A DNA stretch of 64,000 nucleotides from an uncultured Bacilli bacterium (GTDB taxonomy: Bacteria; Bacillota_I; Bacilli_A; RF39; UBA660): positions 157 through 64,156 of the forward strand of contig CANRHS010000001.1 of the NCBI GenBank assembly GCA_947630495.1, read 5' to 3'. The stretch's first letter is position 1; each line of letters begins with the position of its first letter. The position numbers and the translations under genes were made by a program. The notes under the pieces were generated by a model that saw nothing but the letters and a program-made list of their open reading frames with translations, was not told where the DNA came from and made no database searches. Positions 10,318 through 61,605 of the stretch are shown here, one piece after another.

Positions 10318-10399
10318 AAATAGACGTAATAAAAACTAATAACTTTAAAAAGACTTTATGAATAAATAAATTTTGTAACCTTTTTTATTATACATTAGT

Positions 10400-10428: not shown

Positions 10429-10491
10429 ATGACCTAAATTGGTTTGAATTACTTATGAATAAAGTAAATTTATTAGGAAGGAAGAATTATT

Positions 10492-11547: not shown

Positions 11548-11552
11548 AAATA

Positions 11553-11591
11553 TAAGTAATAATAAAGAATAGAGTTTTAAAGCCCTATTCT
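11553..11591. terminator. Bidirectional terminator between convergent genes
   Basis: aaagaatag-N12-ctattcttt hairpin with A/T runs on both sides. Confidence 0.45.
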
Positions 11592-11945: not shown

Positions 11946-11946
11946 A

Positions 11947-13695: not shown

Positions 13696-13850
13696 AAATC
13701 TCACTTTCCTTCCACTTTGTTCAAGACATATATAGTCAAATCTACTATTATATTACAAAAAAATTATAGCAAAAAATAAGTATATTTACAATAATTTTAA
13801 GGAAAATAATCACAACTTTTTTATTTTAACATGCAAAGTATGGGTTAACC

Positions 13851-13879
13851 TTGACAATGCAATAAATTTATACTATAAT
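13851..13879 (+). promoter_or_regulatory. Perfect consensus promoter TTGACA-17-TATAAT for paralogue C
   Basis: ttgaca at 13851-13856, tataat at 13874-13879, 17-nt spacer. Confidence 0.55.
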
Positions 13880-13924
13880 AGGCAACTAGAAAAAGGGATT
13901 ATGTTTATTAAAGGGGGAGTTTAA

Positions 13925-15595
13925 ATGATTTCTACTTCATTATTAACTATTGTTTTTAGTTTTGTTTTAGCTATCCATGGTTCTTATTACTTTACAAGTT
14001 TATATTGTAAATCATATAAGAAATTTCTTAGGAAAAAACTTCGTAAATTAAATTATAAAATTGAATTTGGTATAGATAACATTCCTAATCTTGATGAAGA
14101 AGCAATTACCATGATTCCTTTGGTTAATGCTATTTATGTTTTAATAAAATATAGTCCTTTAAATACGAAAAGAATAATTAAAGAACTTAAGAAAAAAGAT
14201 ATGCTTATTCCAATTCATAAAAAGAAAATTTCAAAAGATAAACAAGAACTAAAAGAAGTAACTAAAAAAGAGCAAATAGATAATAGTAATTTATTAAGAG
14301 AAAAAGTTAAAGAACAAGTAAAATTAACTAAAGAATTAAATAATAGTGATGTTGCTTTAGTATTAAAAATACAAACCTTATTAGTAAAACTTAAAACATT
14401 AAATCCTAAAAGTTATGATTTATTAAGTAAAGAATATGAACAATTAGCAAGAGAAGATAAACTTAATAGTTTTATGTTAAAAGATTTTTTAGCAAGAATT
14501 TTAGTATCATTAGAATACGATATAAGAGATGGAAGTGCCCTTATTAATTATTTAGATTTTTTAATAACAATAACTGAAAAAAGAATTCTAATGAATAGTC
14601 AACAAGATGAAAAGTTCTCTTTTCAAGAACTTGAACAATTAACTAAAGAAATTATAAATAATAGTAATATATATAGTAATGAAGATAAAATAGTTATTTA
14701 TAAAAAGATTTCTCTTTTATATTTATACTTAATATATGAAAGTAAATATATAAATATAGATGAAGTTAGAGATAGTTGTTTTAACTATGAGGCCTTATTA
14801 TATGCTACTATTTTAAATATAGTTGAGTTAAATGAAAGAAATGTAATCGAAAGTAATTTAGCATTTGATATAAATGAAAATTATAGTTTAGAAAGTATAG
14901 TAAAATTAATAAAAGAAATAAAATTCATAAAAAAAGAAACTGAAGAAGTTACTCTAAAAGAACAAATAAAAATAGATAGCAGTGATACAACTTTAGTATT
15001 AAAAATACAAACCTTATTAGTAAAACTTAAAACATTAAATTCTAAAAGTTATGAAACATTAAATAAGGAATATGAAGTCTTAGCAAAAGAAGGCAAACTT
15101 AATAATCTTATGTTAAAAGACTTTTTAGCAAGAATCTTATCAGTTATAGAATATGAAGAAAATAATATAAGTTCTATCATTGATTATTTAGATGTTTGGA
15201 TAGATACTTATGAACAAAAATTTCGAATGGATATGCAAGTAACAAAAAGTCTTACTTTTAAAGAACTTGAACATTTAACTAAAGAGATTATAAATAATAA
15301 AACCTATAGTAATGAAGATAAAGTAGTTATTTATAAAAAGATTTCTCTTTTATACTTATATTTAATATATGAAAATAAATATATAAATATTGCTGTTCTT
15401 AGAGATAGTTGTTTTAACTATGATGCTTTATTATATGCTGCTATTTTAAATATAGTTGAGTTAAAGAAAAGAAATGTAATTGAAGATAATTTAGCATTTG
15501 ATATAAATGAAAAATATGATTTAGAAAGTGTAGTAAGATTAATTACTGAAATAAAGTTTATAAGGAATAAACAATTTGTAAAAAATAATAGTTGA
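13925..15595 (+). CDS. Two-TM membrane protein, paralogue C, carrying two tandem copies of the family's roughly 200-aa domain
   Basis: Internal duplication: aa ~120-335 and ~335-550 both contain TLVLKIQTLLVKLKTLN...KDFLARIL...YKKISLLYLYLIYE...NVIE.NLAFDINE. Several 60-80-bp DNA stretches are near-identical, e.g. 14350-14410 vs 14990-15050. Confidence 0.5.
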   Translation: MISTSLLTIVFSFVLAIHGSYYFTSLYCKSYKKFLRKKLRKLNYKIEFGIDNIPNLDEEAITMIPLVNAIYVLIKYSPLNTKRIIKELKKKDMLIPIHKKKISKDKQELKEVTKKEQIDNSNLLREKVKEQVKLTKELNNSDVALVLKIQTLLVKLKTLNPKSYDLLSKEYEQLAREDKLNSFMLKDFLARILVSLEYDIRDGSALINYLDFLITITEKRILMNSQQDEKFSFQELEQLTKEIINNSNIYSNEDKIVIYKKISLLYLYLIYESKYINIDEVRDSCFNYEALLYATILNIVELNERNVIESNLAFDINENYSLESIVKLIKEIKFIKKETEEVTLKEQIKIDSSDTTLVLKIQTLLVKLKTLNSKSYETLNKEYEVLAKEGKLNNLMLKDFLARILSVIEYEENNISSIIDYLDVWIDTYEQKFRMDMQVTKSLTFKELEHLTKEIINNKTYSNEDKVVIYKKISLLYLYLIYENKYINIAVLRDSCFNYDALLYAAILNIVELKKRNVIEDNLAFDINEKYDLESVVRLITEIKFIRNKQFVKNNS

Positions 15596-15790
15596 CCCCA
15601 GGAGCAAGGGAATTCTAAATATAATAACTATATCTACTCTCTTTGAGAACCCAGCTTTGATCCTTCACAAGTCAACTAAGTAATATTATTATATAACAAA
15701 AATATACATTTGTCAAAATTAGAAATTTATAGAAAATTTGTAAAAGTAATAAAAATATAGTATAATATTAGTAAAGAAAGGAGAAACAGA

Positions 15791-16261
15791 ATGATAGATG
15801 ATATTAATAAGAGCATTTATGAATATGCAAGAGACATTGACAAGCAAACCAGACTTTTATCATTTTTAGATGTTTATAGAATTTTATTAAAAGATTTAAA
15901 TTGTATTGTTTGTATGGAAAGTGCTGCTGATTTACTAGGTTATTCAAATGGTGGTTTTAGACACCAGATTTATGTTTACTCATTAGTTGACTTTAATAAG
16001 CCTTACATAAAATGTTTTATAGTAAAAGATTTAAATAATATTCCATTTATAGATAGAAAAGGAATTAAAGTTTCTCCTATTGAAATTGCAATTAAAGATA
16101 TGTTAGAAAAAAAGGAAACTGACCCTCAAATTTTATATGAAACATTTGCTAATTACTACTTTGATAATAACAAATCATATAAAGGATTAGAATTACCAAA
16201 AAGATTATCTTTAAAAGCAAAACATTTCAAAGAGGAAGGAGCTTTATATTATGAGCAATGA
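15791..16261 (+). CDS. Hypothetical protein
   Basis: 156-aa ORF with an RBS aaggag; no motifs recognised. Confidence 0.35.
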   Translation: MIDDINKSIYEYARDIDKQTRLLSFLDVYRILLKDLNCIVCMESAADLLGYSNGGFRHQIYVYSLVDFNKPYIKCFIVKDLNNIPFIDRKGIKVSPIEIAIKDMLEKKETDPQILYETFANYYFDNNKSYKGLELPKRLSLKAKHFKEEGALYYEQ

Positions 16262-24146: not shown

Positions 24147-24310
24147 TTTTTCCTCCTTTATTAAATTTATTAAATGTCATGCAAGGAAAAAGTCCTTATA
24201 TAAGGACTTTAAATAACTTTATCTTATTTATAGTCCTCGGTAGGATTTACTAATTACCTACTGTCTTTGGCACCACATCAATAAACTTATACTATTATAA
24301 CACAATATTT
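24147..24310 (-). promoter_or_regulatory. rplJ leader (L10/L12 autoregulatory leader region)
   Basis: 164-nt untranslated leader containing the hairpin aaagtccttatataaggacttt. Assigned by position. Confidence 0.4.
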
Positions 24311-26030: not shown

Positions 26031-27020
26031 TTACTTTAATGATAGTAATTGTTTAAGCAAATCCTCATTTTTATTCCAAGATGGTGTGATATTATAAGGC
26101 AAAATATCTTTATAAGCTTTATTAATTGCTTCTCGTTTTGTTTTTTCGTTTGCTTGAGCATATATTTCAGTTGTTGTTATACTCTCATGCCCTAAAAAAT
26201 CTCTAATGTATACGATATTAACTCCGGCTTCTAATAAATGCATTGCTCTAGTTCTTCTAAGTGCATGTGGAGAAATTTTTTTATTTATATTTGCTTTTTG
26301 TATATATTTATCAACAATTTTTTGAATACTCCTTGATGTCAATTTTTCTTTTTTGGAATTACTAAAAAGGTATGAAACATTAGAAAAGTCATTTTCACTA
26401 ATAAATTGCAATAATAATTTTTTGGTATTATTCATTATAGGAACAGAACGTCCTTTTCTACCTTTTCCTATAACATTAACGCATGGATTATTATCTAATC
26501 TTAAATCCATTACCTTAATTTCTAAAAGTTCTGATAATCTTAGACCTGCATCATATAATAAATTTAATAAAACAAAATCCCTACGTCCTTTTATAGTCTT
26601 TGTATTAATAGTTTGAAATACAGTTTGTAATTCATCTATAGTTAAGTATTCTTTTTTTTTCTTCACATTTTTTTTGACTCTTATTTGTAATATATCTTGA
26701 AATTTAATTAAGTTAGCAGGATCTTCTATATTTACATATTGATAAAAAGATTTAATGGCAGCAAGTCTTTGATTTCTTGTATTTATTGAACAATTTCTTG
26801 CATCTTCTAAATATTTCAAAAATTCCTTTATTAAATCTTTATCAATTATTTCAAATGTTATATTTTTTATTTCTATTTTTTTAATATTTACCAAATAAGA
26901 TATTAATAAATTAAAAGTATCTTTATATGAAATTATTGTATTTATAGAAGCATTAATTTCCTGAGGTAAATATATATTAAAAAAATTATTTAAATAATAA
27001 GCAAAATTTTTATTATTCAT
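26031..27020 (-). CDS. ritC: Tyrosine recombinase, third gene of the RIT trio
   Basis: 329 aa. C-terminal catalytic region HALRRTRAMHLLEAG...TTEIYAQ (R..H..R..Y). Its start overlaps the stop of ritB. Confidence 0.7.
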   Translation of the reverse strand: MNNKNFAYYLNNFFNIYLPQEINASINTIISYKDTFNLLISYLVNIKKIEIKNITFEIIDKDLIKEFLKYLEDARNCSINTRNQRLAAIKSFYQYVNIEDPANLIKFQDILQIRVKKNVKKKKEYLTIDELQTVFQTINTKTIKGRRDFVLLNLLYDAGLRLSELLEIKVMDLRLDNNPCVNVIGKGRKGRSVPIMNNTKKLLLQFISENDFSNVSYLFSNSKKEKLTSRSIQKIVDKYIQKANINKKISPHALRRTRAMHLLEAGVNIVYIRDFLGHESITTTEIYAQANEKTKREAINKAYKDILPYNITPSWNKNEDLLKQLLSLK

Positions 27021-27990
27021 CTTCTAAATCCTCCATTTCTAAAATTAAATTACTACCATATTTTTCAATTTGTGTTCTTATGCTTGGATACATATCTGAA
27101 GTAAGACGTAGATAGTAAGCTGTAGAAGATATTTTTGTGTGACCAACATAAGTGCTTAATATAGGAAGATAACTATTAATATCGATTCCATTTTCTACCG
27201 CTTGTTTTAAACTTAAAACACAAAATGTATGTCTAAAATCATGTAATCTTGGACCATTTTCTGTGTGTTTAATTTTAGAATAATGTAAAATTTTTCTGAA
27301 ACAGCTATAGATACTATCCGGTGTATATTTAGTGCCATTTCCATGTCTGAAAAAATAATCTTCTTTTTTATAATTTTGATTGTAATTAATATTTATATAA
27401 TTTAGTTTTTGCATTAATTTTTCAGAAATTACAATTATTCTGGTTTCAGTATTTTTAGTATTATGAATAGTGATTGAATTATTATTAAAATCTATATCTT
27501 CTATTTTAATATTAACACATTCTGATACTCTTAATCCAGTTGAATATAATAAATTAAAAATTGCATTAACTACTAAATTTTTATATGTATCAGTATAATA
27601 AAAATTTTCTAGTGTTTTAAAGAAAATTGTTAATTCTTCTTTGGTAAAAATATGAGGAATGTGTGTTTCATTACCACGTTTATATTTTTTATTTGGAATA
27701 ACATATGCTTCAATGCCATTAGAAACTAAATATTTAGCAAATTGTCTTAAAACTGATGCATAGGCACTTTTACTACATTGTTTTATATTTTTAGAATTTA
27801 AGAAATTTTCTAATATTTTTTTAGTGATTACTTTAGCATCACTATTATTTAAAAGTGTATAGTTATCGAACACTACTAGTTTTGATTTTTGAGAATAGTA
27901 ATTATAACCAAGTTTTATTTTATATTCATAGTATTGATATAAATAATCTTTAAATGGTCCATTAAAAATATTATTATTCATTAGTATCAT
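27013..27990 (-). CDS. ritB: Tyrosine recombinase, second gene of the RIT trio
   Basis: 325 aa. GLRVSECVNIKIEDID, HDFRHTFCVLSL and STAYYLR catalytic-tyrosine region. Confidence 0.7.
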   Translation of the reverse strand: MILMNNNIFNGPFKDYLYQYYEYKIKLGYNYYSQKSKLVVFDNYTLLNNSDAKVITKKILENFLNSKNIKQCSKSAYASVLRQFAKYLVSNGIEAYVIPNKKYKRGNETHIPHIFTKEELTIFFKTLENFYYTDTYKNLVVNAIFNLLYSTGLRVSECVNIKIEDIDFNNNSITIHNTKNTETRIIVISEKLMQKLNYININYNQNYKKEDYFFRHGNGTKYTPDSIYSCFRKILHYSKIKHTENGPRLHDFRHTFCVLSLKQAVENGIDINSYLPILSTYVGHTKISSTAYYLRLTSDMYPSIRTQIEKYGSNLILEMEDLEDE

Positions 27991-29239
27991 CCTCCAAAAA
28001 ACACTTTTTTAAAGAATTGGTATCAATTTTTAGGTAATTTCTTGTACTTTCTATATTTACATGTCCTAAAGTAGATGCTATAATTTCCATTGGAATATTT
28101 GCTTTTAACATTGAACTGGCTAAAGTGTGTCTAAAAGTATGTATTCCTTTTCTTGCTTTTGATAAATAATCTATATTTGCCTTTTGGTAAGTTTTTATTA
28201 AATATTTCTCAATATTTGCGGTATCACTTAATTTCGATGCTTTATCATCATGAGTTACAAAAATATATTTCGAATCAGTTTTGGGTCTACCATTTTGAAC
28301 ATAATTAATAATAGCTATTCCAACATCTTCAAAAAGTGGTAATTGTATTTCAACTTTTGTTTTATGGTGAATAAAAGTTATTGTATTATTTTCCCAATCT
28401 ATGTTAGAAAATTGAAGATTTTTAATATCAATAAATCTAATACCTAATCTAATAGCTAATAGAACAATTGCCTTATTCCTTTTTTCAACATCACTTTCAT
28501 CTACTAAATTATTAACTATTTTTTCAAGTTCCTCAGGTTCCCAAATTGTTACTAAACTGATTGGGGCGTGATATTTTATTTTATCAATTAAGACTGAATA
28601 ATTAGAAATAGTATATTTACTTTCGTATAAAAAATTTAAAAACATTTTTAAAGCCCAATTATAATTTTTTCTAATATAATAGCTTGAGTCATAATATTTA
28701 TTAATAAATTTTTGAATTACACTTAAAGTTAATTTTTCATAATTATCAATACTTTCATTTTCAAAAAAGACCATAATATCTTTTGTAAGTTTTATTTTTT
28801 TTGTAATTGTCACTTCTGAATTGTAATTTTTCATTTCTTGCTTATATTTTTCTAATATTTCCTTATTATAATTAGAAATATTAATTTCATAATGATTATT
28901 AATTATTCTTGAACTTTTTGTTTTTAATTTTAAAGCATTTAATCCTTCAAGAGCATTTATAGAGTGTATAGTGTACAAATAATCTTTATGACTTTTATTA
29001 TTTTTTTGATAATCCAAATATAATTGTTTGCTATTATCATCATAACTCAAGTTATTTTTTTGCAAAAAATCCAATAACTGTTTCCAATTGCGACACATCT
29101 GATTGTAAAAATTATAACTATAGTTACCAATCAGAATTTCCTCCTTTCTTTTTTCGATTAATTCGTTTAATGATAAATAATTCATATTTATCTCCCTCCT
29201 TTTTTGCCATTTAAAAACGATATTAAATGACAAATACAT
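27974..29239 (-). CDS. ritA: Tyrosine recombinase with an extended N-terminal domain, first gene of the RIT trio
   Basis: 421 aa. LGIRFIDIKNLQF, HTFRHTLASSML and TRNYLKID. Probable true start at MNYLSLNE near 29185. Confidence 0.7.
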   Translation of the reverse strand: MYLSFNIVFKWQKRREINMNYLSLNELIEKRKEEILIGNYSYNFYNQMCRNWKQLLDFLQKNNLSYDDNSKQLYLDYQKNNKSHKDYLYTIHSINALEGLNALKLKTKSSRIINNHYEINISNYNKEILEKYKQEMKNYNSEVTITKKIKLTKDIMVFFENESIDNYEKLTLSVIQKFINKYYDSSYYIRKNYNWALKMFLNFLYESKYTISNYSVLIDKIKYHAPISLVTIWEPEELEKIVNNLVDESDVEKRNKAIVLLAIRLGIRFIDIKNLQFSNIDWENNTITFIHHKTKVEIQLPLFEDVGIAIINYVQNGRPKTDSKYIFVTHDDKASKLSDTANIEKYLIKTYQKANIDYLSKARKGIHTFRHTLASSMLKANIPMEIIASTLGHVNIESTRNYLKIDTNSLKKCFLEDDTNE

Positions 29240-43645: not shown

Positions 43646-45172
43646 ATGAACAAAGAAGAAGTGTTAGAAGCAATAAACTTTTTAAAGAAATATAAAACTG
43701 AAAACTCAGAAATAGAAACAAAAAGTGCTAAATTAGGTTTTCCGAAAAAATGTTACGATACTATTTCTGCTTTTGCTAATCAATATGGTGGAATAATACT
43801 ATTTGGAATAAACGAGGAGAACAATTTTGAAATTGAAGGAGTTTATGATTTAAACGATTTACAAAAACAAATAACTAATTTATGTAGTGATTCTTTTGAA
43901 CCTAGAATTAGACCAGAAATAATACAATTAGAAATAGATGGTAAAAATATTTTAGCAGTTAAAATCAAAGAATTAGAACAAACTAAAAAGCCTTGTTATT
44001 ATAAGCCCAAGGGAATAAAAGGTGGATCTTATATAAGAATTGGAGATAGAGATGACTTAATGACTGATTATGAACTTTATTCTTTGCAAAGTTATAAAGA
44101 ACATATTTTTGATGATATAAGACCTACCAAAAGAGCTACTTTAGATGATTTAGATCGTGATGAATTGGTTGAATATATTGATAAAGTTAAAAAAGATAAA
44201 CCTAATTTTGCTAAATATGATTTTGATAAATGTTTAAATTTATGTGGAATAACTGATAAAAATCAAGAGCAAGTTTATCCAACTCTTGCAGGAGTTATGC
44301 TTTTTGGAAAATATCCTCAATGTTTCTATCCTCAATTATTTGTCGCTTGTGTAGTTGTCCCAGGAACAGAACTGGGAATGAAAGGCGAACATGGGGAAAG
44401 ATTTATTGATAATAAAAGAATAGAGGGTACTATTGAAGAAATGCTAGATGGTACTATGAACTTCTTTAGACGAAATATGAGAACTAGTGTAACAATAGAC
44501 TCAAATGGAAAAAGAACTGATAGAACTGAATACCCAATTGATGCTTTAAGAGAGGCTGTTGCCAATAGTTTGATTCATCGTGATTTTAGTTATTTAAGCG
44601 AGACTTCTTACATTTCAGTCTACATGTATAGTGATAGAGTAGAAATTATAAGTCCTGGTGGATTGTATGGAGTTAACAAATTAGAAAAAATTGAAGTTTC
44701 AAATAATTATGAGTCTAGAAATCCTACCATTCTTAAAATTTTAGAAGAAAAAAGTAATGTAATAGAAAATAGACACACGGGTATTCCAACAATGCGAGAT
44801 GAAATGAAAAAACATGGACTTCCAGAACCAGAGTTTTACATCGAAAGAAATTGTTTTAAGGTTGTTTTTAGGAATAAACCTATAGTTGTTACACAAAATA
44901 ATCAAATTAGTGAACAAGTCGGTGAACAAGTCGGTGAACAAGTCAGTGAACAAGTCAGTGAACAAGTCAATGGACTCCACGAAAAAGTTATAAACTTTTG
45001 TAATACACCAAAATCTTTAGATGAAATAAAAAACTACTTAAATATAAAGTCACGTAGTTATATAAGTAGAAAAATTATTAATCCATTAATAAAAGAAGGT
45101 ATATTATCTTATACAAATATTAATAGCCCAAATGCAAGTAATCAAAAATATATAGCAATTAAGAAAAATTAG
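43646..45172 (+). CDS. AlbA_2/Schlafen-domain plus ATPase-like putative DNA-binding regulator (COG2865-like), carrying an EQV(G/S) x5 repeat
   Basis: N-terminal IETKSAKLGFPKK...ISAFANQYGGIILFG (AlbA_2-like). The C-terminal third contains a 12-bp tandem repeat. Confidence 0.45.
   Translation: MNKEEVLEAINFLKKYKTENSEIETKSAKLGFPKKCYDTISAFANQYGGIILFGINEENNFEIEGVYDLNDLQKQITNLCSDSFEPRIRPEIIQLEIDGKNILAVKIKELEQTKKPCYYKPKGIKGGSYIRIGDRDDLMTDYELYSLQSYKEHIFDDIRPTKRATLDDLDRDELVEYIDKVKKDKPNFAKYDFDKCLNLCGITDKNQEQVYPTLAGVMLFGKYPQCFYPQLFVACVVVPGTELGMKGEHGERFIDNKRIEGTIEEMLDGTMNFFRRNMRTSVTIDSNGKRTDRTEYPIDALREAVANSLIHRDFSYLSETSYISVYMYSDRVEIISPGGLYGVNKLEKIEVSNNYESRNPTILKILEEKSNVIENRHTGIPTMRDEMKKHGLPEPEFYIERNCFKVVFRNKPIVVTQNNQISEQVGEQVGEQVSEQVSEQVNGLHEKVINFCNTPKSLDEIKNYLNIKSRSYISRKIINPLIKEGILSYTNINSPNASNQKYIAIKKN
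44909..44968 (+). repeat. In-frame tandem 12-bp repeat (a/g)gtgaacaagtc x5, encoding (S/G)EQV x5
   Basis: Five perfect head-to-tail units at 44909, 44921, 44933, 44945 and 44957. Confidence 0.7.
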
Positions 45173-48834: not shown

Positions 48835-49719
48835 CTACTCACTTATTTTCAAAATTTCCATGATTCGGTTGAAGTCTGCTAAATCTTGGAAATTAATTAA
48901 AATTTTACTTCCTCTAATTCGAACTTTAGTTCCAAGTCGTTCACATAATAACTCTTGAACTGATTTATAAGTTCTAGTTTCTTCCGTTTCATGGCGTTCC
49001 ATTTTATTTCTTTTTTCAACTTCTTTGCCTTGAGCTATTTCATCAAGTTCGTGAGCTGATATTCCTTCATTGATTATTCTATCTGCTAATTCTTCAATCT
49101 TTGCAACATCTTTCATCTTACTTAAGGTTCTAGCATGAGTTGCTGAAATTTTTCTGGCTATAACTAAGTCTTTAACAGAATCTGGTAAATTCATAAGTCC
49201 AACCATATTAGTTACATAACTTCGACTTTTACCAATCCTTTGTGCAAGTTGTTCTTGATTTAAACCCCGTGACTCCATCAAACTTTGATAAGCCATTGCT
49301 TCTTCAATAGGATTTAAATCTTCTCTTTGTAAGTTTTCAAGTAAGGCTATTTCCATCATTTCTTGGTCATTAAAGTCGCGAACTATGGCAGGAATAGTTA
49401 AGCGACCTGCAATGGTACTTGCTTTAACTCTTCTTTCTCCAGCAACAATTTCATATCCCTTAATACTTCTTTTAACAATAATTGGTTGGAATACTCCGTG
49501 TTCCTTAATAGATTCTGCAAGTTCATTTAATTTCTCTTCATCAAATACTTTTCTTGGTTGATAAGGATTGCTTCTTAACTCACTTATATTAACTTCAATT
49601 ACCTCTTCTTGAGGTGTCTCATTGACAATTTGCTCTTCAAGTGTTTCAATATCCAAAACTTCGGCCCCGAATAATTCTTCTAAACCTTTTCCTAATGCTC
49701 TCCTTCTAGGCGTTTCCAT
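48835..49719 (-). CDS. parB: Chromosome partitioning protein ParB/Spo0J
   Basis: 294 aa. ParB box ELAESIKEHGVFQPIIVR and HTH; overlaps parA. Confidence 0.9.
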   Translation of the reverse strand: METPRRRALGKGLEELFGAEVLDIETLEEQIVNETPQEEVIEVNISELRSNPYQPRKVFDEEKLNELAESIKEHGVFQPIIVKRSIKGYEIVAGERRVKASTIAGRLTIPAIVRDFNDQEMMEIALLENLQREDLNPIEEAMAYQSLMESRGLNQEQLAQRIGKSRSYVTNMVGLMNLPDSVKDLVIARKISATHARTLSKMKDVAKIEELADRIINEGISAHELDEIAQGKEVEKRNKMERHETEETRTYKSVQELLCERLGTKVRIRGSKILINFQDLADFNRIMEILKISE

Positions 49720-50491
49720 TTCTCATAATCACTTCCTTTGCTAAATTTATATACGCTTCAGACCCCTTACTTTTAGGATCATAAGCAACAATGGGCTTAC
49801 CATGGCTAGGTGCCTCCGCAAGTCTAATTAATCTAGGTATAATTGTATCATATACCTTATCTTTAAAGTAACTTCTAATTTCTTCAATAACATCAAGACC
49901 TAAGTTAGATTTTGATAGCATAGTTAATAAAACTCCTTCTAACTCTAATTTAGGATTTAAGTTTTTTTGAGCAAGCATAATTGTATTTAGTAATTGTGTT
50001 ATTCCCTCTAAGGCATAAAACTCACATTGAACGGGAATTAACACTGAATTACTTGCTGTTAAAGCATTCGTTGTTATCATTCCTAAACTTGGAGGACAAT
50101 CAATTATAAAATAATCATATTCATCTTTATATGGTGTTATTTTTTCTTTTAATTGATGTGATCTTTTAAAATTAGGATCTTTCTTACTTTTTTCGATAAG
50201 TTCAATATCAATTCCTGCAAGTTGAATAGTTGATGGAATAATGTCTAAACTTTTAAAGTCAGTTTTTACAATTACTTCTTCAATACTTGCTTCTCCTCTT
50301 AATAAATCATAGATACTTTTTTCAATATCTCCTTTATTAATACCCACTCCCGTTGTCGCGTTGCCTTGTGGGTCTAAATCTATTAGTAAAACTTTTTTCC
50401 CAAGTAAAGCCAAAGATGCAGCTAAATTGATACTAGTTGTTGTTTTGCCAACTCCTCCTTTTTGATTTACTAATGATATAATTTTTCCCAT
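49706..50491 (-). CDS. parA: Chromosome partitioning ATPase ParA/Soj
   Basis: KGGVGKTTTSINLA deviant Walker A. True start MGKIIS with RBS aaggtgg. Confidence 0.9.
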   Translation of the reverse strand: MGKIISLVNQKGGVGKTTTSINLAASLALLGKKVLLIDLDPQGNATTGVGINKGDIEKSIYDLLRGEASIEEVIVKTDFKSLDIIPSTIQLAGIDIELIEKSKKDPNFKRSHQLKEKITPYKDEYDYFIIDCPPSLGMITTNALTASNSVLIPVQCEFYALEGITQLLNTIMLAQKNLNPKLELEGVLLTMLSKSNLGLDVIEEIRSYFKDKVYDTIIPRLIRLAEAPSHGKPIVAYDPKSKGSEAYINLAKEVIMRNGNA

Positions 50492-50899
50492 GATTACCAC
50501 CTTCTATACAGTTGTCAAATATATTTTATCAAAAAATGACAAAATAAGCAAAGGTATTTAATACATTTAGAACAAAAATAATTTTTGAATAAATTCAAAA
50601 ATCATTTGAAAGCATCACGGCTTTCTTTTTCTACTTCACAGGATACTTTGCATCCTCCATAGACCAGAATCCGATGGTCGCCACCGTTTATTTTTTTTAG
50701 TATTTTAGAATTTATTCTACTAAATTAAATTTAATTTTCCTTTAACCTTTCTTTGTTTATTATTATACATATTATTTTTTCTTTTGGCAAGACTCTTTTG
50801 CACTTTTCGCCATTTTTCCAACTGATTTTCTTTTTATATAAAAAATTATTAAGGAAATTAGAAAAAAGAGTTCTAGGAATAAACTTCCCTAAAACTTTT

Positions 50900-51595
50900 T
50901 TAATAATTTTCCATTTTCCCTAATTTTTTAATTTTAAATCCAGCACTTGTATTTGATAAAGTTAAAACTTTACCATCACTACAATTCATTTCATCATAGG
51001 CATTACATTTAAGAATATTTAAACTTATTTCATTTGAATTTTTATTTTCTTTATAATCAATTACTTTATAATTATAATCATATTCAACAAAGACTTTATG
51101 TTCTAAAGAAAATTTATTATCTTTATAAGTAAAACTTTTAATAAAACTATCTTCATTTACTTTATATTGTTTTAATTGATCCATTACTTTATCTATATCT
51201 TTTATTTCAAAATAATTCATTAATCCATTTTTTAAATCTGTTTCTGCTATATCATCTCCACCGGTATAACCAATTATAAAAGCAAAATAATCATCTACTG
51301 TTGCCTTTTCTATATCAAAACTACTGACATTTAATTGAAATATATCTAATAATTTATTATTATTGTAAAACCATTTTATAGCATTTAAACCATTAGTAGA
51401 AATTCCTCCATAGCATTTACTTCCACAATTTTCTTCGGTTTCACTCGCTGGAGGAAGTTCTTCTTGGTTTTCATTAGTTTCTTCTTTTATATTTTCTTTA
51501 TTTATTAATTTATCATATCCTATATAACAAAGAGAAAGTCCTAGTAATACACCTAAGACTCCAATTATTATATTTTTTTTAATACTCTTATCCAT
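50900..51595 (-). CDS. Putative lipoprotein
   Basis: Signal peptide with lipobox LGLSLC; no domains recognised. Confidence 0.4.
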   Translation of the reverse strand: MDKSIKKNIIIGVLGVLLGLSLCYIGYDKLINKENIKEETNENQEELPPASETEENCGSKCYGGISTNGLNAIKWFYNNNKLLDIFQLNVSSFDIEKATVDDYFAFIIGYTGGDDIAETDLKNGLMNYFEIKDIDKVMDQLKQYKVNEDSFIKSFTYKDNKFSLEHKVFVEYDYNYKVIDYKENKNSNEISLNILKCNAYDEMNCSDGKVLTLSNTSAGFKIKKLGKMENY

Positions 51596-51603
51596 ATATT
51601 ACC

Positions 51604-53670
51604 TTACTTTTTTATCTTAATTGTAATTTGATAGTAATCGTCAAACTCTATTTCTTCTGTATCAATACTTATATTATTTTGTTTAATAGCATCTGTTGTT
51701 TTCTTTAATTCATAAACAGCACCTCTAGCATCAAAAATCGTTTTAACTGGTTCAAGAACAATATAATCATTCTTTTTTTCTTGTTTAGTATCTGAAGTTG
51801 TTTCTTCTTTTTCCTCTTTTTCTTCTTGTGCACCTGTTGGCTCTGCTCCAATTACTTCTACTTCTTCAACTTCTTCCTTTGGCATTTCTTCTTGTTCTTC
51901 TTCATGTTTTTCAGGTTGTTCAGTTGGTTCTTCTTTTTGAATTTCCTCTTTTTCTTCTTTAACTGAAACTGGTTTAGCATTTAAAATATCTTCATAAGGA
52001 TCATCAAATGGATTATCAAATTTTTCATTATTTTCCTGATTTAATTCTTGATAATTATCATCAAACCTAGGCTCATTTCTAGGTGGTCTATTATCATTCA
52101 TATTGTAATCATTCATCTGATTATTATCAGGAACATTTACTATATTTAATGGTTGGTTAAATAATCCACCTTGGTTAGCATTAAAATCAATAGGGGACAT
52201 ATCATTATTATTTTGTTTAGGGAATGAAAAATCATCTATTGGATTATTAAAGTTATTCATATTTCCCATATTATTTATATTATTATTCATGTTGCCCATA
52301 TTATCATTCATATTATTCATATTAAAGTTATTGTTAGGATTTGGATTAAAATTATTATTATTGTTTTGATTTATAAAATTATTCATTCCAAAATCTTGCT
52401 CTTGTTCAAAATTATTCATACTATTATCTTCAAAAGAGTTTTGATTGTTATCAAAGTTATTTGGTGTATCAAAATTTGGTAAGAATTGATTTTCTTTAGG
52501 TTTTATAGCATTTTCTCTTATCTGACTTACAAATGGATTATCTCCTTCATTGGCGTTATAATTTGGATTATTATTAGAATTATTAATATTTGGAGCTCCA
52601 TCAAACATAGATCCTAGAGAACTAAAGTTATTATTAGAATTCATTTGTGAATTATTATTTCCCTGAGGCATTGCAAATCCTGGAGTATCTTTAAAATCTC
52701 CATAGTCAATACCTTGATTAGGTTCATTATTTGAATTTTGATTATCATTATAAACTGAGGAATCATTAAAATCATTGGAAAAATTATTTCCAAAGGTTGG
52801 ATTGTTAGGCATATTACTTGGATTTTGGTTATTAAAATTAGGAATATTATTAAACATACCTCCATTTATAGAACTTTGATAGTCATTTAAACCCATACCT
52901 CCAAAGTTACCATGAAAACTAGGCATATTATTTTGTCTGCTATTTTGTTGTCCGAAGTTATTCATTGGCATATCATTATTCATATTAAAATTATTTGAAT
53001 TTTGATTATTCATCATATTATTATTCATATCACTTTCTCCTTCATCCATATTATTACTAGATTCTTCTTTTAATTTTTTAATTTCGGCATCTAACTCTCT
53101 AACTGTTAATCTTTCATTTCTAATTCTATCTAACATCATTAATTGTTGCTCTTTATCTTTCAAATTTAGTAGGCTTCTTGCATGACGTTCAGAAATTTGA
53201 TTTTTCATTAGGGCATCTTGAACTTCTTCAGGTAATCCTAAAAGCCTTAATTTATTAGCAATAGCCGGTTGACTTCTTCCCATGGTTTTGGCTAGACTTT
53301 CTTGAGTCATATTATCGAGTTCAAGAATTCTTTTGTAAGTTCTTGCTTCTTCAATTGCACTTAAATTTTTTCTTTGCAAATTTTCAAGGAGTGATACTTT
53401 GGCACTTTCCCGATCATCCATCTCCCTAATAATAGCAGGAACTGTTGTTAATCCTGCTAAAGATGATGCTTTACATCTTCTTTCCCCAGCAATAAGTTCG
53501 TATTTTCCATTTTTTGGTCGTACTAAAATTGGCTGAAGTACTCCGTGTTCTTTAATCGAATCTGATAATTCTTCTAATCCTGTTTCATCAAATTCTTCTC
53601 GAGGTTGAAATCTATTTGGCATAATATCTTCTATTTTTAAATAGACAACCTCATTTTCTTTATTATCCAT
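51604..53670 (-). CDS. noc: Noc/ParB-like nucleoid-occlusion protein with a roughly 320-aa N/Q/M-rich low-complexity insertion
   Basis: N-terminal ParB box (LSDSIKEHGVLQPILVRP, GERRCKAS) and HTH, then roughly 320 aa dominated by N, Q, M, F and G, then a Glu/Lys-rich linker and a C-terminal domain. Confidence 0.75.
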   Translation of the reverse strand: MDNKENEVVYLKIEDIMPNRFQPREEFDETGLEELSDSIKEHGVLQPILVRPKNGKYELIAGERRCKASSLAGLTTVPAIIREMDDRESAKVSLLENLQRKNLSAIEEARTYKRILELDNMTQESLAKTMGRSQPAIANKLRLLGLPEEVQDALMKNQISERHARSLLNLKDKEQQLMMLDRIRNERLTVRELDAEIKKLKEESSNNMDEGESDMNNNMMNNQNSNNFNMNNDMPMNNFGQQNSRQNNMPSFHGNFGGMGLNDYQSSINGGMFNNIPNFNNQNPSNMPNNPTFGNNFSNDFNDSSVYNDNQNSNNEPNQGIDYGDFKDTPGFAMPQGNNNSQMNSNNNFSSLGSMFDGAPNINNSNNNPNYNANEGDNPFVSQIRENAIKPKENQFLPNFDTPNNFDNNQNSFEDNSMNNFEQEQDFGMNNFINQNNNNNFNPNPNNNFNMNNMNDNMGNMNNNINNMGNMNNFNNPIDDFSFPKQNNNDMSPIDFNANQGGLFNQPLNIVNVPDNNQMNDYNMNDNRPPRNEPRFDDNYQELNQENNEKFDNPFDDPYEDILNAKPVSVKEEKEEIQKEEPTEQPEKHEEEQEEMPKEEVEEVEVIGAEPTGAQEEKEEKEETTSDTKQEKKNDYIVLEPVKTIFDARGAVYELKKTTDAIKQNNISIDTEEIEFDDYYQITIKIKK

Positions 53671-53858: not shown

Positions 53859-54569
53859 CTATTGTTTATGGTATTCTTTTTTTATTTTGCCATAACTTCT
53901 TGGATATTTAGTTGGAGTTTTATCTTGTTTTTGAATTTTTACTAGAGTTCTTGTACTATTTTCTATTGGTAAAGTAAAGGTATTAATGTTAATTATTTTA
54001 GCATTTATATCTTTTAAGATTTTATTTGATTCTTTAATCTCTTCATTGATATTTGATTTCATTGCTATTAAGTAGGAGTTTATTTTTAGAAGAGGCATAG
54101 TTGTTTCTACTAAGATACCTAAGTGAGCGACGGCTCTTGCTACTACTAAATCGTATTCTTCTTTAGTTTCTCTTGCATAATCTTCAACTCTTAAACATTT
54201 TGTTTCTATATCATGTAAATCTAACTCTTTAATTATTTCATTAAGATAATTTATTCTTTTATTTAAGGAATCAAGTAAAGTTATTTTTAAATTGGGAAAT
54301 ACTATTTTTAAAACAATTCCCGGGAAGCCTGCACCTGTTCCTACATCTAAAACTTTTAATGGTTTCGTTAAATCTATTTCTTTTATTAAAGTTAGGCTAT
54401 CATAAAAATGTTTTAGAAAACAATCTTCTTTTTTAGTAATAGTTGTTAAATTTATTTTTTCATTCCAACTTATTAAAAGATTATAAAATTTATCTAGTTT
54501 ACTTAGTTTTTCTTCATCTAACTTTATACCAAGTTTCTCTACTTCGTTTAAAAATTCTTCTTTATTCAT
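53859..54569 (-). CDS. rsmG: 16S rRNA m7G527 methyltransferase
   Basis: VLDVGTGAGFPGI; 236 aa; conserved position next to mnmG. Confidence 0.9.
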   Translation of the reverse strand: MNKEEFLNEVEKLGIKLDEEKLSKLDKFYNLLISWNEKINLTTITKKEDCFLKHFYDSLTLIKEIDLTKPLKVLDVGTGAGFPGIVLKIVFPNLKITLLDSLNKRINYLNEIIKELDLHDIETKCLRVEDYARETKEEYDLVVARAVAHLGILVETTMPLLKINSYLIAMKSNINEEIKESNKILKDINAKIININTFTLPIENSTRTLVKIQKQDKTPTKYPRSYGKIKKEYHKQ

Positions 54570-57908: not shown

Positions 57909-59360
57909 TTAATCCATAATCTGATTTGTGAACGCTCCATCAGTATACTTATTAGTAAAAGTTTTAGTTTTGGTATCATAACAACTTTCCATTCCTACAT
58001 ATGTTTTATCATTTTCTTTTATACTTTCTTTAAAAGAAATAGCTAAACATTTTTTATTTTCTTTTTTATCTACATAAGAAAAGTCACCTTCATAAACATA
58101 ATTATCATTCCAATTAACATTTGAATATTCTATAACATTATTTGTTTCTATATTTTTTAAATATAATTTATTATTATCTAAATATACTAATTCATTATCT
58201 AAGAAACCTAGTAAATTATTATAATCTTTATTACTTTCTATTAAAATTCCAGAACTATCATACTTATTTAATTTGTTATTATTTATAATATATACATTCC
58301 CTTTCATAAAAGTTAAATTATAATGTTTTACATTTGATGCTATTAATTTTTTATCTTTTGTGTAAAGATCAATTTCTGGATATGCTTGAAAGCCTTTAAC
58401 TACTTCTAAATAAGTACTACCATTTTGTTCCATAGCGTAATAATTGTAACATATATTGTTTTTTAATTTTTCATCAAAGATAACCTTTTCTTCAGTGGCT
58501 GACAATAGGTAATCATAAGTATCCCAGCCATTACATTCTCCAATATTTTCAATTTTTGAAGCACGTAAATAATTTTCATTTATTCCATTAATCTTTATAT
58601 ATGTATTTTCATACATTTTTTTATTAGTTAAAACATTGTAATAACCACTTTCTTTATCTTTAGAATAATAAATTCCATAAAGTTTATCCGAATCAAATGA
58701 TAATGTATAATTCTCATATGTTGGTTCTAAGTCTAGTTTTTGTTCTGTATCTGTATATATATTGTAAGCAACTAGGCCATCATTGTTATATAAAAAGCCA
58801 TATTTTAAATTTTCGTATTTCATACTACTAATTATATTTGTTATTACTTTTTGATTTTTTAAAGAGTAATATTTTTCTATATTAGAATTTTGATTACGAT
58901 AAATTATTCCTATTACATCATCTTTGTTTTGATTTAAACGTAATTCATAATTATATTTAGCAGCATCATCAATTTTTAGGTTTAATTCTTGTGTTTTTTT
59001 CTCTTTTGCATCATATAACTTTAGGCCATTATCATCATATAAAATAAATACATACTTATCTTTATAACCTGCCGAACTTAATACTTCAGCATTTGTTGTT
59101 TTAGTTTTAATTTTATAAGTAATACATCCTTCAATTGCATTCGAACAATTAAGTGAATAGCCACTATCATCAAACTTTAAAGTTGTCTCTATAATATAAT
59201 CTTTGTCTTTTTCAACTTCTTCTGGCGTATTATTATCTTCTTGATTTTCTTTTAAATTAACTATTTTATAAGCAAAGAAGCAAATTCCTAATATAATAAC
59301 TAAAACTCCAACTATTGTAAAAATTATAGTTATTTTATTTCTCTTTTTATTCTTTTCCAT
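57909..59360 (-). CDS. Hypothetical N-terminally anchored extracytoplasmic protein
   Basis: TM ITIIFTIVGVLVIILGICFFAY followed by 450 aa of Y/N/K-rich sequence. Confidence 0.35.
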   Translation of the reverse strand: MEKNKKRNKITIIFTIVGVLVIILGICFFAYKIVNLKENQEDNNTPEEVEKDKDYIIETTLKFDDSGYSLNCSNAIEGCITYKIKTKTTNAEVLSSAGYKDKYVFILYDDNGLKLYDAKEKKTQELNLKIDDAAKYNYELRLNQNKDDVIGIIYRNQNSNIEKYYSLKNQKVITNIISSMKYENLKYGFLYNNDGLVAYNIYTDTEQKLDLEPTYENYTLSFDSDKLYGIYYSKDKESGYYNVLTNKKMYENTYIKINGINENYLRASKIENIGECNGWDTYDYLLSATEEKVIFDEKLKNNICYNYYAMEQNGSTYLEVVKGFQAYPEIDLYTKDKKLIASNVKHYNLTFMKGNVYIINNNKLNKYDSSGILIESNKDYNNLLGFLDNELVYLDNNKLYLKNIETNNVIEYSNVNWNDNYVYEGDFSYVDKKENKKCLAISFKESIKENDKTYVGMESCYDTKTKTFTNKYTDGAFTNQIMD

Positions 59361-60693: not shown

Positions 60694-61605
60694 CTAACTT
60701 TTTATTAATTTATGTACTTTTACATCTTCTTTCTGAGAGAATATATTATCTAACTCTAAAACTCTTTCTCTAAATAGTTCTAATAGATTTGTTGTTTCTT
60801 CTATTATATCATTAAAAATATTTTTAAGTAAGACTTCATCTTTATTATACAACCCATCGAGTAAAAAGAGAAGAGGGCTTTTTAAATTTTTTTCTCCTAA
60901 TAGTCTTAAAGTAAAGTCCATTTTATTAGTTGGAATAAGATAATTTGAGAAATTACAATAGTTCATAAGGTTATTTATAAATTTATTAACTGAATAAAAA
61001 CAGTTTTCATAGATAGTATCATCAGGCATCTTATCAGTATGGAAATTAAAGTTACAATCATTTTCTGTAATATCCCAGTTTAAGTATCTATATTCTCGTT
61101 TCTTTAGCATATCTATACAATAGTTAAGTCCTTCGTGACCATTTATAAGGTCATCTAATGTGAATCTTACATCTTGAAATCTTTTTAAAGAATCAATACC
61201 GGATACAATTCTATATCTTGTTCCATATTGATATTTGTGAGTTTCTGGTAGAAAGTCATCCATTTGGCTTTTTTCATGAATCATCGCATGGATTAAAACG
61301 TTTTTCTTGTCAGTTGACACTTTATGGTTAACTGGTCCAACTAAGCAGGAATAACCAACTTGAATTTCATCCGTTGATAGTTTTTCTGATAAAACTCCTA
61401 AAAAATGTTCAAAGTCTTCGATATCTTCTTTCGTAACTTTCTTAGAAATTACTCGGATATCATAGTCGTTATCAAGTCTATCTTGATAATCATCATGAGC
61501 CATTGAACCAACAACAAAAATAGTTTCTACATCCTTCTTGTTCATAAAATATAAAGTAAATGCTACATCAATTTTCTTGGTAACTGCTTTTAATTCATTT
61601 GTCAT
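60694..61605 (-). CDS. ANT(6)/AadK-family (Pol-beta fold) nucleotidyltransferase
   Basis: VGSMAHDDYQDRLDNDYDIRVI fits the GS...D.D NTase motif and resembles the ANT(6) block GSR...DEFQDYDITYFV as I recall it. Confidence 0.45.
   Translation of the reverse strand: MTNELKAVTKKIDVAFTLYFMNKKDVETIFVVGSMAHDDYQDRLDNDYDIRVISKKVTKEDIEDFEHFLGVLSEKLSTDEIQVGYSCLVGPVNHKVSTDKKNVLIHAMIHEKSQMDDFLPETHKYQYGTRYRIVSGIDSLKRFQDVRFTLDDLINGHEGLNYCIDMLKKREYRYLNWDITENDCNFNFHTDKMPDDTIYENCFYSVNKFINNLMNYCNFSNYLIPTNKMDFTLRLLGEKNLKSPLLFLLDGLYNKDEVLLKNIFNDIIEETTNLLELFRERVLELDNIFSQKEDVKVHKLIKS

Follow-up and report, generated by a model that had tools for sequence, protein, structure and literature searches.

A protein of 688 amino acids, encoded within a 64,000-nucleotide stretch of DNA (the window), is a new form of the known Noc/ParB family that carries a giant, acidic, motif-bearing linker. 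Judged by its sequence, it appears to be a Noc-lineage paralogue of ParB from a gut-dwelling member of the Bacilli that is uncultured, walled and low in GC. Its linker is the canonical tether of ~20 amino acids between the DNA-binding and C-terminal domains, expanded throughout a clade rather than acquired as a one-off insertion, and the N-rich form found here lies at the extreme end of that expansion. The architecture, synteny, composition, predicted disorder, conservation pattern and selection regime of the protein were established directly. The explanation of them that we favour, at a little short of an even chance, is that in this Noc-lineage CTP clamp the tether has become, under selection, a disordered acidic scaffold that is multivalent and displays motifs. 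In the literature, no report of an N-rich, prion-like or long-linker ParB or Noc protein was found.

Noc lineage, locus and folded domains

The noc-like open reading frame (ORF) contains no interruption, and its product is identical to a 688-amino acid Noc-like protein present in a public collection (P0001). The earlier note had called it a Noc/ParB homologue, an assignment borne out by matches to Pfam ParB_N and HTH_ParB, by Noc being the best solved-structure match (200 bits), and by its position in the gene order rsmG-noc-soj-spo0J, a locus at which a separate canonical ParB is also encoded:

53859..54569, minus strand: rsmG (gidB), lying upstream and marking the noc position (synteny)
51604..53670, minus strand: complete noc-like ORF, 688 amino acids plus stop, Noc-lineage member of the ParB family (domain and solved-structure matches)
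53374..53652, minus strand: ParB N-terminal (predicted CTP-binding) domain, residues 7-99 (Pfam PF02195, 113.7 bits)
53068..53370, minus strand: ParB HTH DNA-binding domain, residues 101-201 (Pfam PF17762, 108.4 bits)
51607..51765, minus strand: Noc-type C-terminal (predicted dimerisation) domain, residues 636-688, ending in TEEIEFDDYYQITIKIKK (TIGR04285 match)
50900..51595, minus strand: 231-amino acid protein with an N-terminal transmembrane segment, 8 nt past the noc-like stop
49706-50500, minus strand: soj/parA (domain matches and synteny)
48835-49719, minus strand: canonical spo0J/parB, 294 amino acids (domain matches and synteny)

The Noc model TIGR04285 matched the 688-amino acid protein in two stretches with a score of 283.4 bits, which is below the curated cutoff of 315; the Spo0J-like paralogue scored lower still (231.5 bits), and its best solved-structure match was Spo0J (204.6 bits) rather than Noc (163 bits). 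From these matches, three hallmarks of the ParB/Noc superfamily (an N-domain with CTP motifs, an HTH domain and a C-terminal domain) appear to be present. The CTP motifs, GERRxR and ENLQR in the superfamily, read GERRCK at residues 62-67 and ENLQR at residues 96-100, and within them G62, E63, R64 and R65, as well as E96, N97, L98, Q99 and R100, were invariant among 50 relatives. An AF2 run on a 50-sequence alignment gave pLDDT values of 85-90 for the N-domain and 88-95 for the HTH domain, and predicted a helix at residues 648-664 of the C-terminal domain, which spans 53 amino acids in all relatives at 0.73 identity. The two matches to the Noc model, at positions 1-207 and 204-255 (the latter formed by the last 52 amino acids, E 2.8e-5), flank the linker, which therefore lies exactly between the DNA-binding and C-terminal domains, where the earlier note had located its extra segment. 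The frame of the N-rich segment continues into this C-terminal domain, the sole alternative-frame ORF is 74 amino acids long, and some 320 stop-free codons would arise by chance at 27% GC with a probability of ~5e-13, as estimated from base composition.

Noc of Bacillus subtilis and Geobacillus thermoleovorans (TIGR04285; PDB 7NFU, 7NG0, 7OL9 and 6Y93) is alike in gene position, GERR/ENLQR motifs and C-terminal domain. In Noc, the residues Q158, K164, K169 and R186 (QKKR) determine the choice of the binding site, NBS (PMC7383237). On alignment to G. thermoleovorans Noc, the corresponding positions were Q, K, G and R in the 688-amino acid protein, and Q, K, S/G/A/T/M and R clade-wide, such that three of the four specificity residues are kept, both base-contacting residues among them, whilst the fourth is G here and K in Noc. 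One near-consensus NBS-like palindrome, ATTTCTCGGGAAAT, was found in the window (12761-12774; 0.02 expected) and none in 19 related loci; a single such site is not enough to define a binding site. No parS site with two or fewer mismatches occurred within the window, and matches with three mismatches were at chance level.

In the alignment, residue 25 of the Noc chains falls at query residues 3-5, and an upstream extension of the ORF is impossible; the protein is some 20 N-terminal residues short and is missing the amphipathic membrane-targeting helix of Noc, which in B. subtilis is needed for nucleoid occlusion (PMC8429893). Among the closest 150 family representatives at 50% identity, nearly all of which are 335-800 amino acids long with an N-domain beginning at residue 2-5, none had the membrane helix. 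Since the protein is without this helix, the nucleoid-occlusion condensate proposed earlier is an assumption. Also missing is the N-terminal ParA-interaction peptide of ParB/Spo0J, one of which is present in the 294-amino acid paralogue. The gene for the 231-amino acid membrane-segment protein is probably co-transcribed with the noc-like gene, and was found only beside the closest relatives of the latter. Neither the window nor the 399-nt spacer preceding soj yielded anything relevant in Rfam and tRNA scans.

Composition, charge and predicted disorder of the linker

Two segments of the linker are distinguished:

52021..53058, minus strand: N/Q/F/M-rich acidic disordered segment, residues 205-550 (composition, Q/N criterion, charge and pLDDT)
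51766..51966, minus strand: Glu-rich acidic variable segment, residues 569-635 (charge count and length variation)

The composition of residues 201-521 (53070..52110), with N at 33.6%, F 8.7%, M 7.5%, S 7.5%, D 7.2%, P 6.9%, G 6.5%, Q 6.2% and K+R at 2.2%, agreed with the low-complexity, N-rich segment of about 320 amino acids that had been described, but the segment extends to approximately residue 550 rather than 521 and has five conserved islands inside it. Contrary to the earlier description, it is not devoid of charge: basic residues are scarce, yet Asp and Glu bring residues 205-560 to a net charge of -33. What had been termed a Glu/Lys-rich linker downstream of it is indeed Glu-rich, but mainly acidic (29 acidic and 11 basic residues over the nearly coincident stretch 561-635, net charge -18), and the segment at 569-635 ranges from 18 to 112 amino acids across relatives. 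Taken whole, the linker of ~430 amino acids has a per-chain net charge of about -51 and a K+R content of about 2-4%; the net charge per residue works out at approximately -0.09 for the N-rich part and -0.11 for the linker as a whole.

Canonical ParB has an 'invariably ~20 amino acid', lysine-rich linker between its DNA-binding and C-terminal domains (PMC8367383); the 688-amino acid protein has no such linker. Relative to chromosomal ParB/Spo0J clamps, the tether is about 20 times longer and strongly negative, and relative to Noc, in which it is short and basic, it is both long and acidic. The domain-sized insertion inferred earlier from canonical lengths is not unique, being the extreme end of a clade-wide expansion of the tether. 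AF2 assigned pLDDT values below 50 over residues 213-641, rising slightly at the islands, which in the prediction neither folded together nor docked onto the folded domains, the DNA-binding domain included.

An Asn bias of the whole genome, which had been raised as a possible explanation of the tract, was rejected. Asn averages 7.2% over the window's 58 remaining ORFs, the densest 40-residue stretch of the noc-like ORF holds 25 Asn as against 12 or fewer in any other window ORF, and no comparable tract occurs in those ORFs, nor among 196 from related loci. The aromatic residues are patterned: the coefficient of variation of their spacing was 0.57 in the window protein, compared to 0.91 ± 0.13 in shuffled sequences, and adjacent aromatic pairs numbered zero with four expected. 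In 98% of relatives the spacing z-score was likewise below zero, with 42 adjacent pairs found and 173 expected.

Conserved islands and selection across the clade

Some 98 clusters of proteins, originating in independent metagenomes (drawn from NCBI, ENA, JGI and Logan assemblies), had N-rich linkers, lengths of 541-824 amino acids and the same rsmG-noc-soj-spo0J position; the relatives belong to Candidatus Onthousia and to uncultured Bacilli or 'Tenericutes' metagenome-assembled genomes. Set between fast-evolving spacers in their linkers are five islands (GMGLNDYQ, SLGSMFDG, ENQFLPNFD, LFNQPLNIV and DNPFDDPYE(D/N)IL), which keep a fixed order across clade members:

52816..52911, minus strand: island M1, residues 254-285 (NFGGMGLNDYQS..MFNNIPNFNN; conservation, pLDDT bump at 258-264)
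52597..52623, minus strand: island M2, residues 350-358 (SSLGSMFDG), in 82 of 98 members
52468..52539, minus strand: island M3, residues 378-401 (NPFVSQIRENAIKPKENQFLPNFD; conservation)
52129..52176, minus strand: island M4, residues 499-514 (NQGGLFNQPLNIVNVP), in 95 of 98 members
51967..52020, minus strand: island M5, residues 551-568 (FDNPFDDPYEDILNAKPV), consensus DNP.DD.YENILFAKPVP

The islands are of fixed length and 0.56-0.83 identity, as against 0.12-0.26 in the spacers. M259, G260, L261, D263 and Y264 of M1 were invariant among the 50 relatives, and its GLNDY core, loosened to G[LIM][ND][DE][YF], occurred in 97 of the 98 members, as did the FLPNF core of M3 in the form F[LIM]P[ND][FLIM]. 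M2 showed 0.83 identity to the window protein, M3 (24 amino acids, with S382, F396, P398 and N399 invariant) 0.68, M4 (G501, F504 and L508 invariant) 0.81, and M5, with pLDDT bumps at 553-567, 0.56. Other sub-clades have conserved linker motifs of their own, such as KFINYGEID, DLDSLLNI and NKFFNFLEDE, and the motifs consist of hydrophobic cores flanked by acidic residues (for example KFINYGEIDDDEDD, NKFFNFLEDE and DNPFDDPYE). All 52 matches of a database search with the linker alone were to the Noc-like family itself or to its N-truncated fragments. Comparison by eye with beta-clamp, FtsZ-tail and EH-domain (NPF) motifs gave no convincing match to the islands. The five conserved motifs and the recurrence of the linker across the whole clade indicate that the variant is real and selected.

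The linker could nevertheless be a passive tether that grew neutrally, with AT-biased mutation and slippage during replication yielding Asn-rich filler once constraint was relaxed, and with the flexible connection alone mattering. The linker DNA has 25% GC, compared to 32% in the N-domain, and its Asn codons are AAT in 101 cases and AAC in 16; it also contains short imperfect tandem repeats, though the reiteration reported in the earlier note is weak, the best array amounting to 2.4 copies of 30 nt at 80% identity. Proteins with N-domains 99% identical differ by 9-16 spacer indels. Linker dN/dS was 0.26-0.50 (approximate values, from low-complexity alignments), which is 3-10 times that of the folded parts (0.01-0.13 in these and the neighbouring genes). 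In the wider clade, linkers vary from ~90 to 570 amino acids and also greatly in composition, such that much of the sequence is weakly constrained. The length polymorphism anticipated earlier does exist, among strains as well as among species, but at least 22 contigs carry one and the same allele. A neutral origin is difficult to reconcile with islands as conserved as the folded domains, with dN/dS values still well under 1, with a universal net negative charge, or with even aromatic spacing kept across relatives. Nor would AT-biased mutation deplete K, I, L and Y, which have AT-rich codons, by 3-6 fold whilst enriching P, G and M, leave relatives of equal GC (26.7-29%) with half the Asn (12-17%), or spare every other ORF in the window and related loci. 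We therefore hold this explanation to be unlikely, albeit one that deserves serious weight.

The one linker property that the wider clade has in common is its negative charge (204 of 204 linkers examined), which is opposite in sign to that of the lysine-rich canonical ParB linkers. Together with the acidic flanks of the hydrophobic motif cores, it would suit an electrostatic regulator, in which the polyanionic linker acts as an intramolecular DNA mimic that competes for the basic DNA-binding surface, the N/Q content being incidental. Non-specific DNA binding might thereby be suppressed, loading or sliding tuned, and clamp-coated DNA made self-repelling; the acidic tails of SSB and HMGB1 act as DNA-competing regulators of this kind. 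This alternative leaves unexplained both the need for 300-570 amino acids and the gain of evenly spaced aromatics in the N-rich sub-clade (9.6%, compared to 1.7-4.8% in others), and AF2 placed nothing from the linker on the DNA-binding domain, hence we regard it as rather unlikely.

Prion-like character and proposed role

Qualifying windows covering residues 201-549, with a maximum of 42 Q/N per 80 residues, exceeded the Michelitsch-Weissman cutoff of at least 30 Q+N per 80-residue window. In this respect the prion-like composition claimed in the earlier note was upheld, but the segment is acidic and rich in Pro and Asp, and an approximate PAPA score, which peaked at 0.097, passed the threshold of 0.05 at 81 of 360 positions. 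The positive stretches lie around residues 236-290 and 440-475, most of the linker being negative on account of its Pro, Asp and Glu. Alongside the predicted disorder, these properties might be taken for a true prion-forming domain, that is, a heritable amyloid switch as in Clostridium botulinum Rho, and bacterial prion-like domains are documented (PMC4703818, PMC6400439), with ParB/Noc not named in one survey of such proteins. The strong negative charge, Pro (7.6%) and Asp (8.1% of residues 205-560), which inhibit prion formation, would argue against classic amyloid behaviour, as do the mostly negative PAPA profile, Asn runs no longer than five, and aromatics that are regularly spaced and hardly ever adjacent, leaving a prion switch very improbable. 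An assembly, frameshift or chimeric artefact, conceivable in a metagenome-assembled contig with low-complexity DNA prone to mis-assembly and named in the earlier note as grounds for refutation, is effectively refuted by the ~98 clusters of the same architecture, the allele shared identically between contigs, the frame unbroken into a homologous C-terminal domain and the fixed order of the islands.

The linker resembles FUS/hnRNPA1-type and cohesive N/Q-rich FG-nucleoporin domains, in that polar N/Q/S/G spacers, few basic residues and predicted disorder are shared, as are ~10% aromatics that are evenly spaced and rarely adjacent. Such even spacing goes with liquid-like rather than solid assemblies, as Martin and colleagues reportedly found in 2020. 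Unlike those domains, to which it is non-homologous, the Noc-like linker is strongly negative and has high Pro and Asp contents and conserved motifs. Of two sticker-and-spacer traits, evenly patterned aromatics in a polar, predicted-disordered spacer were found, whereas the near-neutral net charge that allows homotypic demixing was not; the net charge per residue opposes homotypic condensation, barring counter-ions or a basic partner. The C. botulinum Rho prion-like domain is likewise N/Q-rich disorder gained by a bacterial nucleic-acid-binding protein, and the acidic and aromatic short motifs resemble the partner-docking C-terminal tip of SSB. The Noc-like protein differs from both in family and in that its disorder lies within the chain and links two folded domains of a predicted ring-forming clamp, so that the length of the disordered region would set the size of the ring.

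In the selected-scaffold explanation that we favour, the protein would load at a specific palindromic site and close around DNA as a CTP-dependent clamp. The linker may then serve firstly as a very long acidic spacer or brush, pointing away from the DNA and widening the clamp compartment; secondly, its five short linear motifs may dock a partner or mediate specific self-association; and thirdly, in the N-rich sub-clade, the N/Q spacers and even Phe/Tyr residues could provide weak multivalent cohesion between neighbouring DNA-bound clamps. [quoted passage not shown]

ParB and Noc are model CTP-switch DNA clamps, the compartment of which is thought to be set by a lysine-rich tether of invariably ~20 amino acids. 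A clade that has lengthened this tether by a factor of 5 to 25 and reversed its charge amounts to a natural experiment, and in one branch the motif-bearing tether is also prion-like with patterned aromatics. The finding bears on the roles of the linker and of lumen size, on how a Noc-lineage protein works without its membrane helix, and on sticker-and-spacer disordered regions of bacterial chromosome-bound clamps, whilst the five conserved motifs are concrete handles for partner finding. A broader reading, which we consider rather doubtful, is that a large uncultured clade of gut Bacilli has re-engineered Noc by losing the helix and gaining a prion-like, acidic, motif-bearing tether that forms a DNA-templated brush or condensate or recruits division or segregation factors. 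If true, nucleoid occlusion would be achieved, or the chromosome organised, with no tethering to the membrane, and the ParB family would include a clamp whose giant lumen is functionally tuned.

Architecture and lineage of the noc-like protein

The noc-like gene encodes a Noc/ParB-family protein whose DNA-binding domain (DBD) and C-terminal domain (CTD) are separated by a linker of approximately 430 residues that is predicted to be disordered. The features of the gene and its product are:

51604..53670, (-): noc-like ORF, uninterrupted, 688 aa
Residues 7-99: ParB_N (Pfam, 113.7 bits)
Residues 101-201: HTH_ParB (Pfam, 108.4 bits)
53070..52110, (-), residues 201-521: N-rich segment of the earlier note
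Residues 561-635: Glu-rich stretch, 29 acidic and 11 basic residues, net charge -18
After the Glu-rich stretch: C-terminal domain, 53 residues

A Pfam scan of the 688-aa protein returned no further domain C-terminal to HTH_ParB. The Noc model TIGR04285 matched the N-terminal part at model positions 1-207 and the CTD at positions 204-255 (E 2.8e-5), which places the ~430 extra residues exactly at the canonical DBD-CTD junction and confirms the location proposed in the earlier note. By composition count, residues 201-521 comprise 33.6% Asn, 8.7% Phe, 7.5% Met, 7.5% Ser, 7.2% Asp, 6.9% Pro, 6.5% Gly and 6.2% Gln, with Lys and Arg together at just 2.2%. The N-rich character of this ~320-aa segment was therefore upheld but its extent was not, since low complexity continues to approximately residue 550. 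Similarly, the linker said to be Glu/Lys-rich is mainly acidic, and the supposed near absence of charged stretches is contradicted by a net charge of -33 over residues 205-560. Reiteration of the DNA amounted to cryptic repeats, the best tandem array having just 2.4 copies of 30 nt (80% identity) and Asn runs reaching five at most.

The gene occupies the classical noc position, which is conserved in relatives, in the order mnmE-mnmG-rsmG-[noc-like]-(231-aa gene)-soj-spo0J. Its best solved-structure matches were Noc (7NG0 and 7NFU, 200 bits, vs 174 bits for Spo0J 6SDK), whilst the 294-aa window paralogue showed the reverse preference (Spo0J 204.6 bits, Noc 163 bits). Four residues, Q158, K164, K169 and R186 of B. 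subtilis Noc, shift ParB recognition from parS to the Noc-binding site, NBS (PMC7383237). At these positions the window protein carries Q, K, G and R, and its clade Q, K, S/G/A/T/M and R; the GERR and ENLQR motifs are invariant. In alignment with solved Noc the protein begins approximately 20 residues later and so lacks the amphipathic membrane-targeting helix, an element on which nucleoid occlusion depends in B. subtilis (PMC8429893). Given this and a TIGR04285 score of 283 bits, below the 315-bit cutoff, the protein is, judged by sequence, a Noc-lineage ParB paralogue and not a demonstrated Noc. The sole source name recorded among database matches was 'ParB/RepB/Spo0J family partition protein', and no long-linker, N-rich or prion-like ParB or Noc turned up in literature searches. 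The organism is related to Candidatus Onthousia and to uncultured Bacilli or 'Tenericutes' MAGs; its genes for a class A PBP and for a homologue of VanY indicate that it makes peptidoglycan.

Despite the canonical soj-spo0J pair (spo0J 48835-49719), parS (TGTTNCACGTGAAACA) was absent from the 64 kb at up to two mismatches, and the centromere sequence of this lineage may be different or located elsewhere. One near-consensus NBS palindrome, ATTTCTCGGGAAAT, with one mismatch, was present at 12761-12774 (0.02 expected by chance), within an AAA+ ATPase ORF (11947-13704); none was found in 19 related loci.

Neighbouring genes and other window features

Further features of the window were:

9322-16261: plus-strand ORF block without Pfam matches inside an otherwise minus-strand region, GC falling to 21-22%, GC skew sign reversed; an island probably gained by horizontal transfer
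24177-24288, (-): ribosomal protein L10 leader (RF00557, 55.6 bits); no other Rfam family reached its gathering threshold
26031-29239, (-): three tyrosine-recombinase (Phage_integrase) genes, overlapping and in tandem (329, 325 and 421 aa), as is typical for mobile elements of the 'recombinase trio' kind
43646-45172, (+): Schlafen AlbA_2 and HATPase_c_4 in one protein, among the few plus-strand genes of that stretch
50790-50762: strong promoter-like site ahead of soj
50896-50869: terminator-like hairpin after the 231-aa gene
50900-51595, (-): 231-aa ORF with an N-terminal transmembrane segment, beginning 8 nt past the noc-like stop
57909-59360, (-): 483-aa ORF, 12.4% Asn, no Pfam match
60694-61605, (-): 303-aa ORF, no Pfam match

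The last two ORFs are situated between mnmE and upstream genes, and no tRNA genes were detected in the 64-kb window. The 231-aa protein had no match in Pfam or NCBIfam. Its homologues adjoin only the closest Noc relatives (69% identity at locus L016, 38% at L021, which also has a paralogue alike in the transmembrane segment alone) and are absent at the loci of the 584-aa and Onthousia types, making it a possible sub-clade-specific membrane partner.

Linker length and conserved islands among relatives

Residues 1-205 alone were used to query 1.84 billion representatives of 50%-identity clusters. The best 150 matches (57-90% identical) were almost all 335-800 aa, with the N-domain beginning at residue 2-5; among full-length members the linker measured roughly 90-535 aa (median ~213 aa). 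The linkers differed widely in composition, being rich in E, P, T, S, A, N or Q, and Asn reached 18% in just 15/135, whilst net charge was negative in 204/204 (-0.04 to -0.36 per residue). Canonical chromosomal ParB linkers, in contrast, are described as 'invariably ~20 amino acid' and enriched in lysine, with a significance that the source calls unknown (PMC8367383). The "domain-sized insertion" is thus real in its extra length but clade-wide, and the long linker is a clade trait of which the N-rich form is the extreme. When the linker was itself searched against the database, no other protein family was found to have it.

K-mer enrichment and alignment within the N-rich clade revealed five islands in fixed order:

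M1, residues 254-285: NFGNMGLNDYQ...MFNNIPN
M2, residues 350-358: SLGSMFDG
M3, residues 378-401: N.FVS.IRE....ENQFLPNFD
M4, residues 499-514: NQG.LFNQPLNIV.VP
M5, residues 551-568: DNP.DD.YENILFAKPVP

M2, M3 and M4 are fixed in length and 0.68-0.83 identical to the window protein, comparable to the folded domains (0.78 and 0.73), whereas the spacers show identities of 0.12-0.26 and lengths of, for example, 48 to 238 aa. In AF2 with a 50-sequence alignment, pLDDT was 85-95 across residues 1-210 and stayed under 50 across residues 213-641, with small bumps coinciding with the islands. Sub-clades outside the N-rich group (proteins P0126-P0256) have their own motifs, PKFINYGEIDxDEDD followed ~55 aa on by ADLDSLLNI, or NKFFNFLEDE..NM; like the islands, these are hydrophobic/aromatic cores with acidic flanks, and may be divergent counterparts of M1-M4. 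Between the close strains of L017 (8001-9755) and L020 (2587-4407), rsmG and the N-domain of noc had a dS of 0.08-0.11, and soj and the linker of noc one of 0.6-0.7, a mosaic that suggests a recombination breakpoint within the noc-like gene.

Signs of selection on the linker and its possible role

Neutral, AT-driven expansion would account for linkers differing by 9-16 indels in pairs with 99%-identical N-domains. Nei-Gojobori dN/dS was 0.26-0.50 in the linker, where low-complexity alignments are uncertain, vs 0.01-0.13 in folded parts and neighbouring genes, indicating relaxed but not neutral evolution. AT-biased drift would raise Lys, Ile, Tyr and Leu together with Asn, yet these are depleted relative to background (Lys 10.0% to 1.6%, Ile 9.7% to 3.4%, Leu 10.2% to 1.6%, Tyr 5.2% to 1.2%), with Met (2.2% to 7.5%), Pro (2.6% to 6.9%) and Phe (3.8% to 8.7%) enriched, which points to selection and not AT pressure alone. 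Nor is Asn bias genome-wide: the other 58 window ORFs average 7.2% Asn and peak at 12 or fewer per 40 residues, vs 25 in the noc-like protein; of 196 ORFs of 150 aa or longer in related loci, none but the Noc-like genes had Asn-dense windows; and in relatives matched for GC (26.7-29%) the linker is just 12-17% Asn. Neutral expansion is hence doubtful.

A role mainly electrostatic or autoinhibitory, with which the uniformly negative linker charge agrees, appears unlikely; in the AF2 model no island or linker part docked onto the folded domains. Aromatics in the window protein are evenly spaced (CV 0.57 vs 0.91+-0.13 in shuffles), with 0 adjacent vs 4 expected. Across 47 relatives, whose values are not independent, spacing z was below 0 in 98%, with 42 adjacent pairs vs 173 expected, and aromatic content was 9.6% in the N-rich clade vs 1.7-4.8% in other groups. 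Martin et al. 2020 reportedly associate uniformly patterned aromatics in prion-like domains with assemblies that are liquid-like and not solid.

The prion-like label given earlier agrees with the classical Q/N-rich criterion (42 per 80 residues, threshold 30), but an approximate PAPA-type score exceeded 0.05 just near residues 236-290 and 440-475, Pro, Asp and Glu making it negative elsewhere. With the strong negative charge, this makes a classic amyloid prion unlikely on sequence, and a true prion highly improbable overall; for the same reasons homotypic demixing would be non-trivial unless counter-ions or a basic partner took part. An assembly or frameshift artefact can be dismissed, as the same frame spans HTH, linker and Noc-type CTD, an identical protein and ~98 further 90%-identity clusters (541-824 aa, every linker 18-34% Asn) occur in NCBI, ENA, JGI and Logan assemblies, and at least 22 contigs encode an identical copy of P0037, a 584-aa homologue with an N-rich linker.

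The reading favoured, though tentatively, is that of a Noc-lineage CTP clamp whose tether is a selected module. Loading would occur at a specific palindrome, as the Q, K, x, R residues imply, and the N-gate would close on CTP, as conserved motifs imply; from the architecture, DNA would be kept in a compartment of two ~430-residue acidic disordered chains joined by the C-terminal dimer. The tether could serve as an anionic spacer or brush, display five docking motifs and, in this branch, act as a sticker-and-spacer region through which clamps cohere by weak multivalent contacts. The fold and the family are both ordinary, and it is the linker that contradicts the family's stated rule; the membrane helix is missing throughout a large uncultured clade, in which the tether module may be the effector part in its place.
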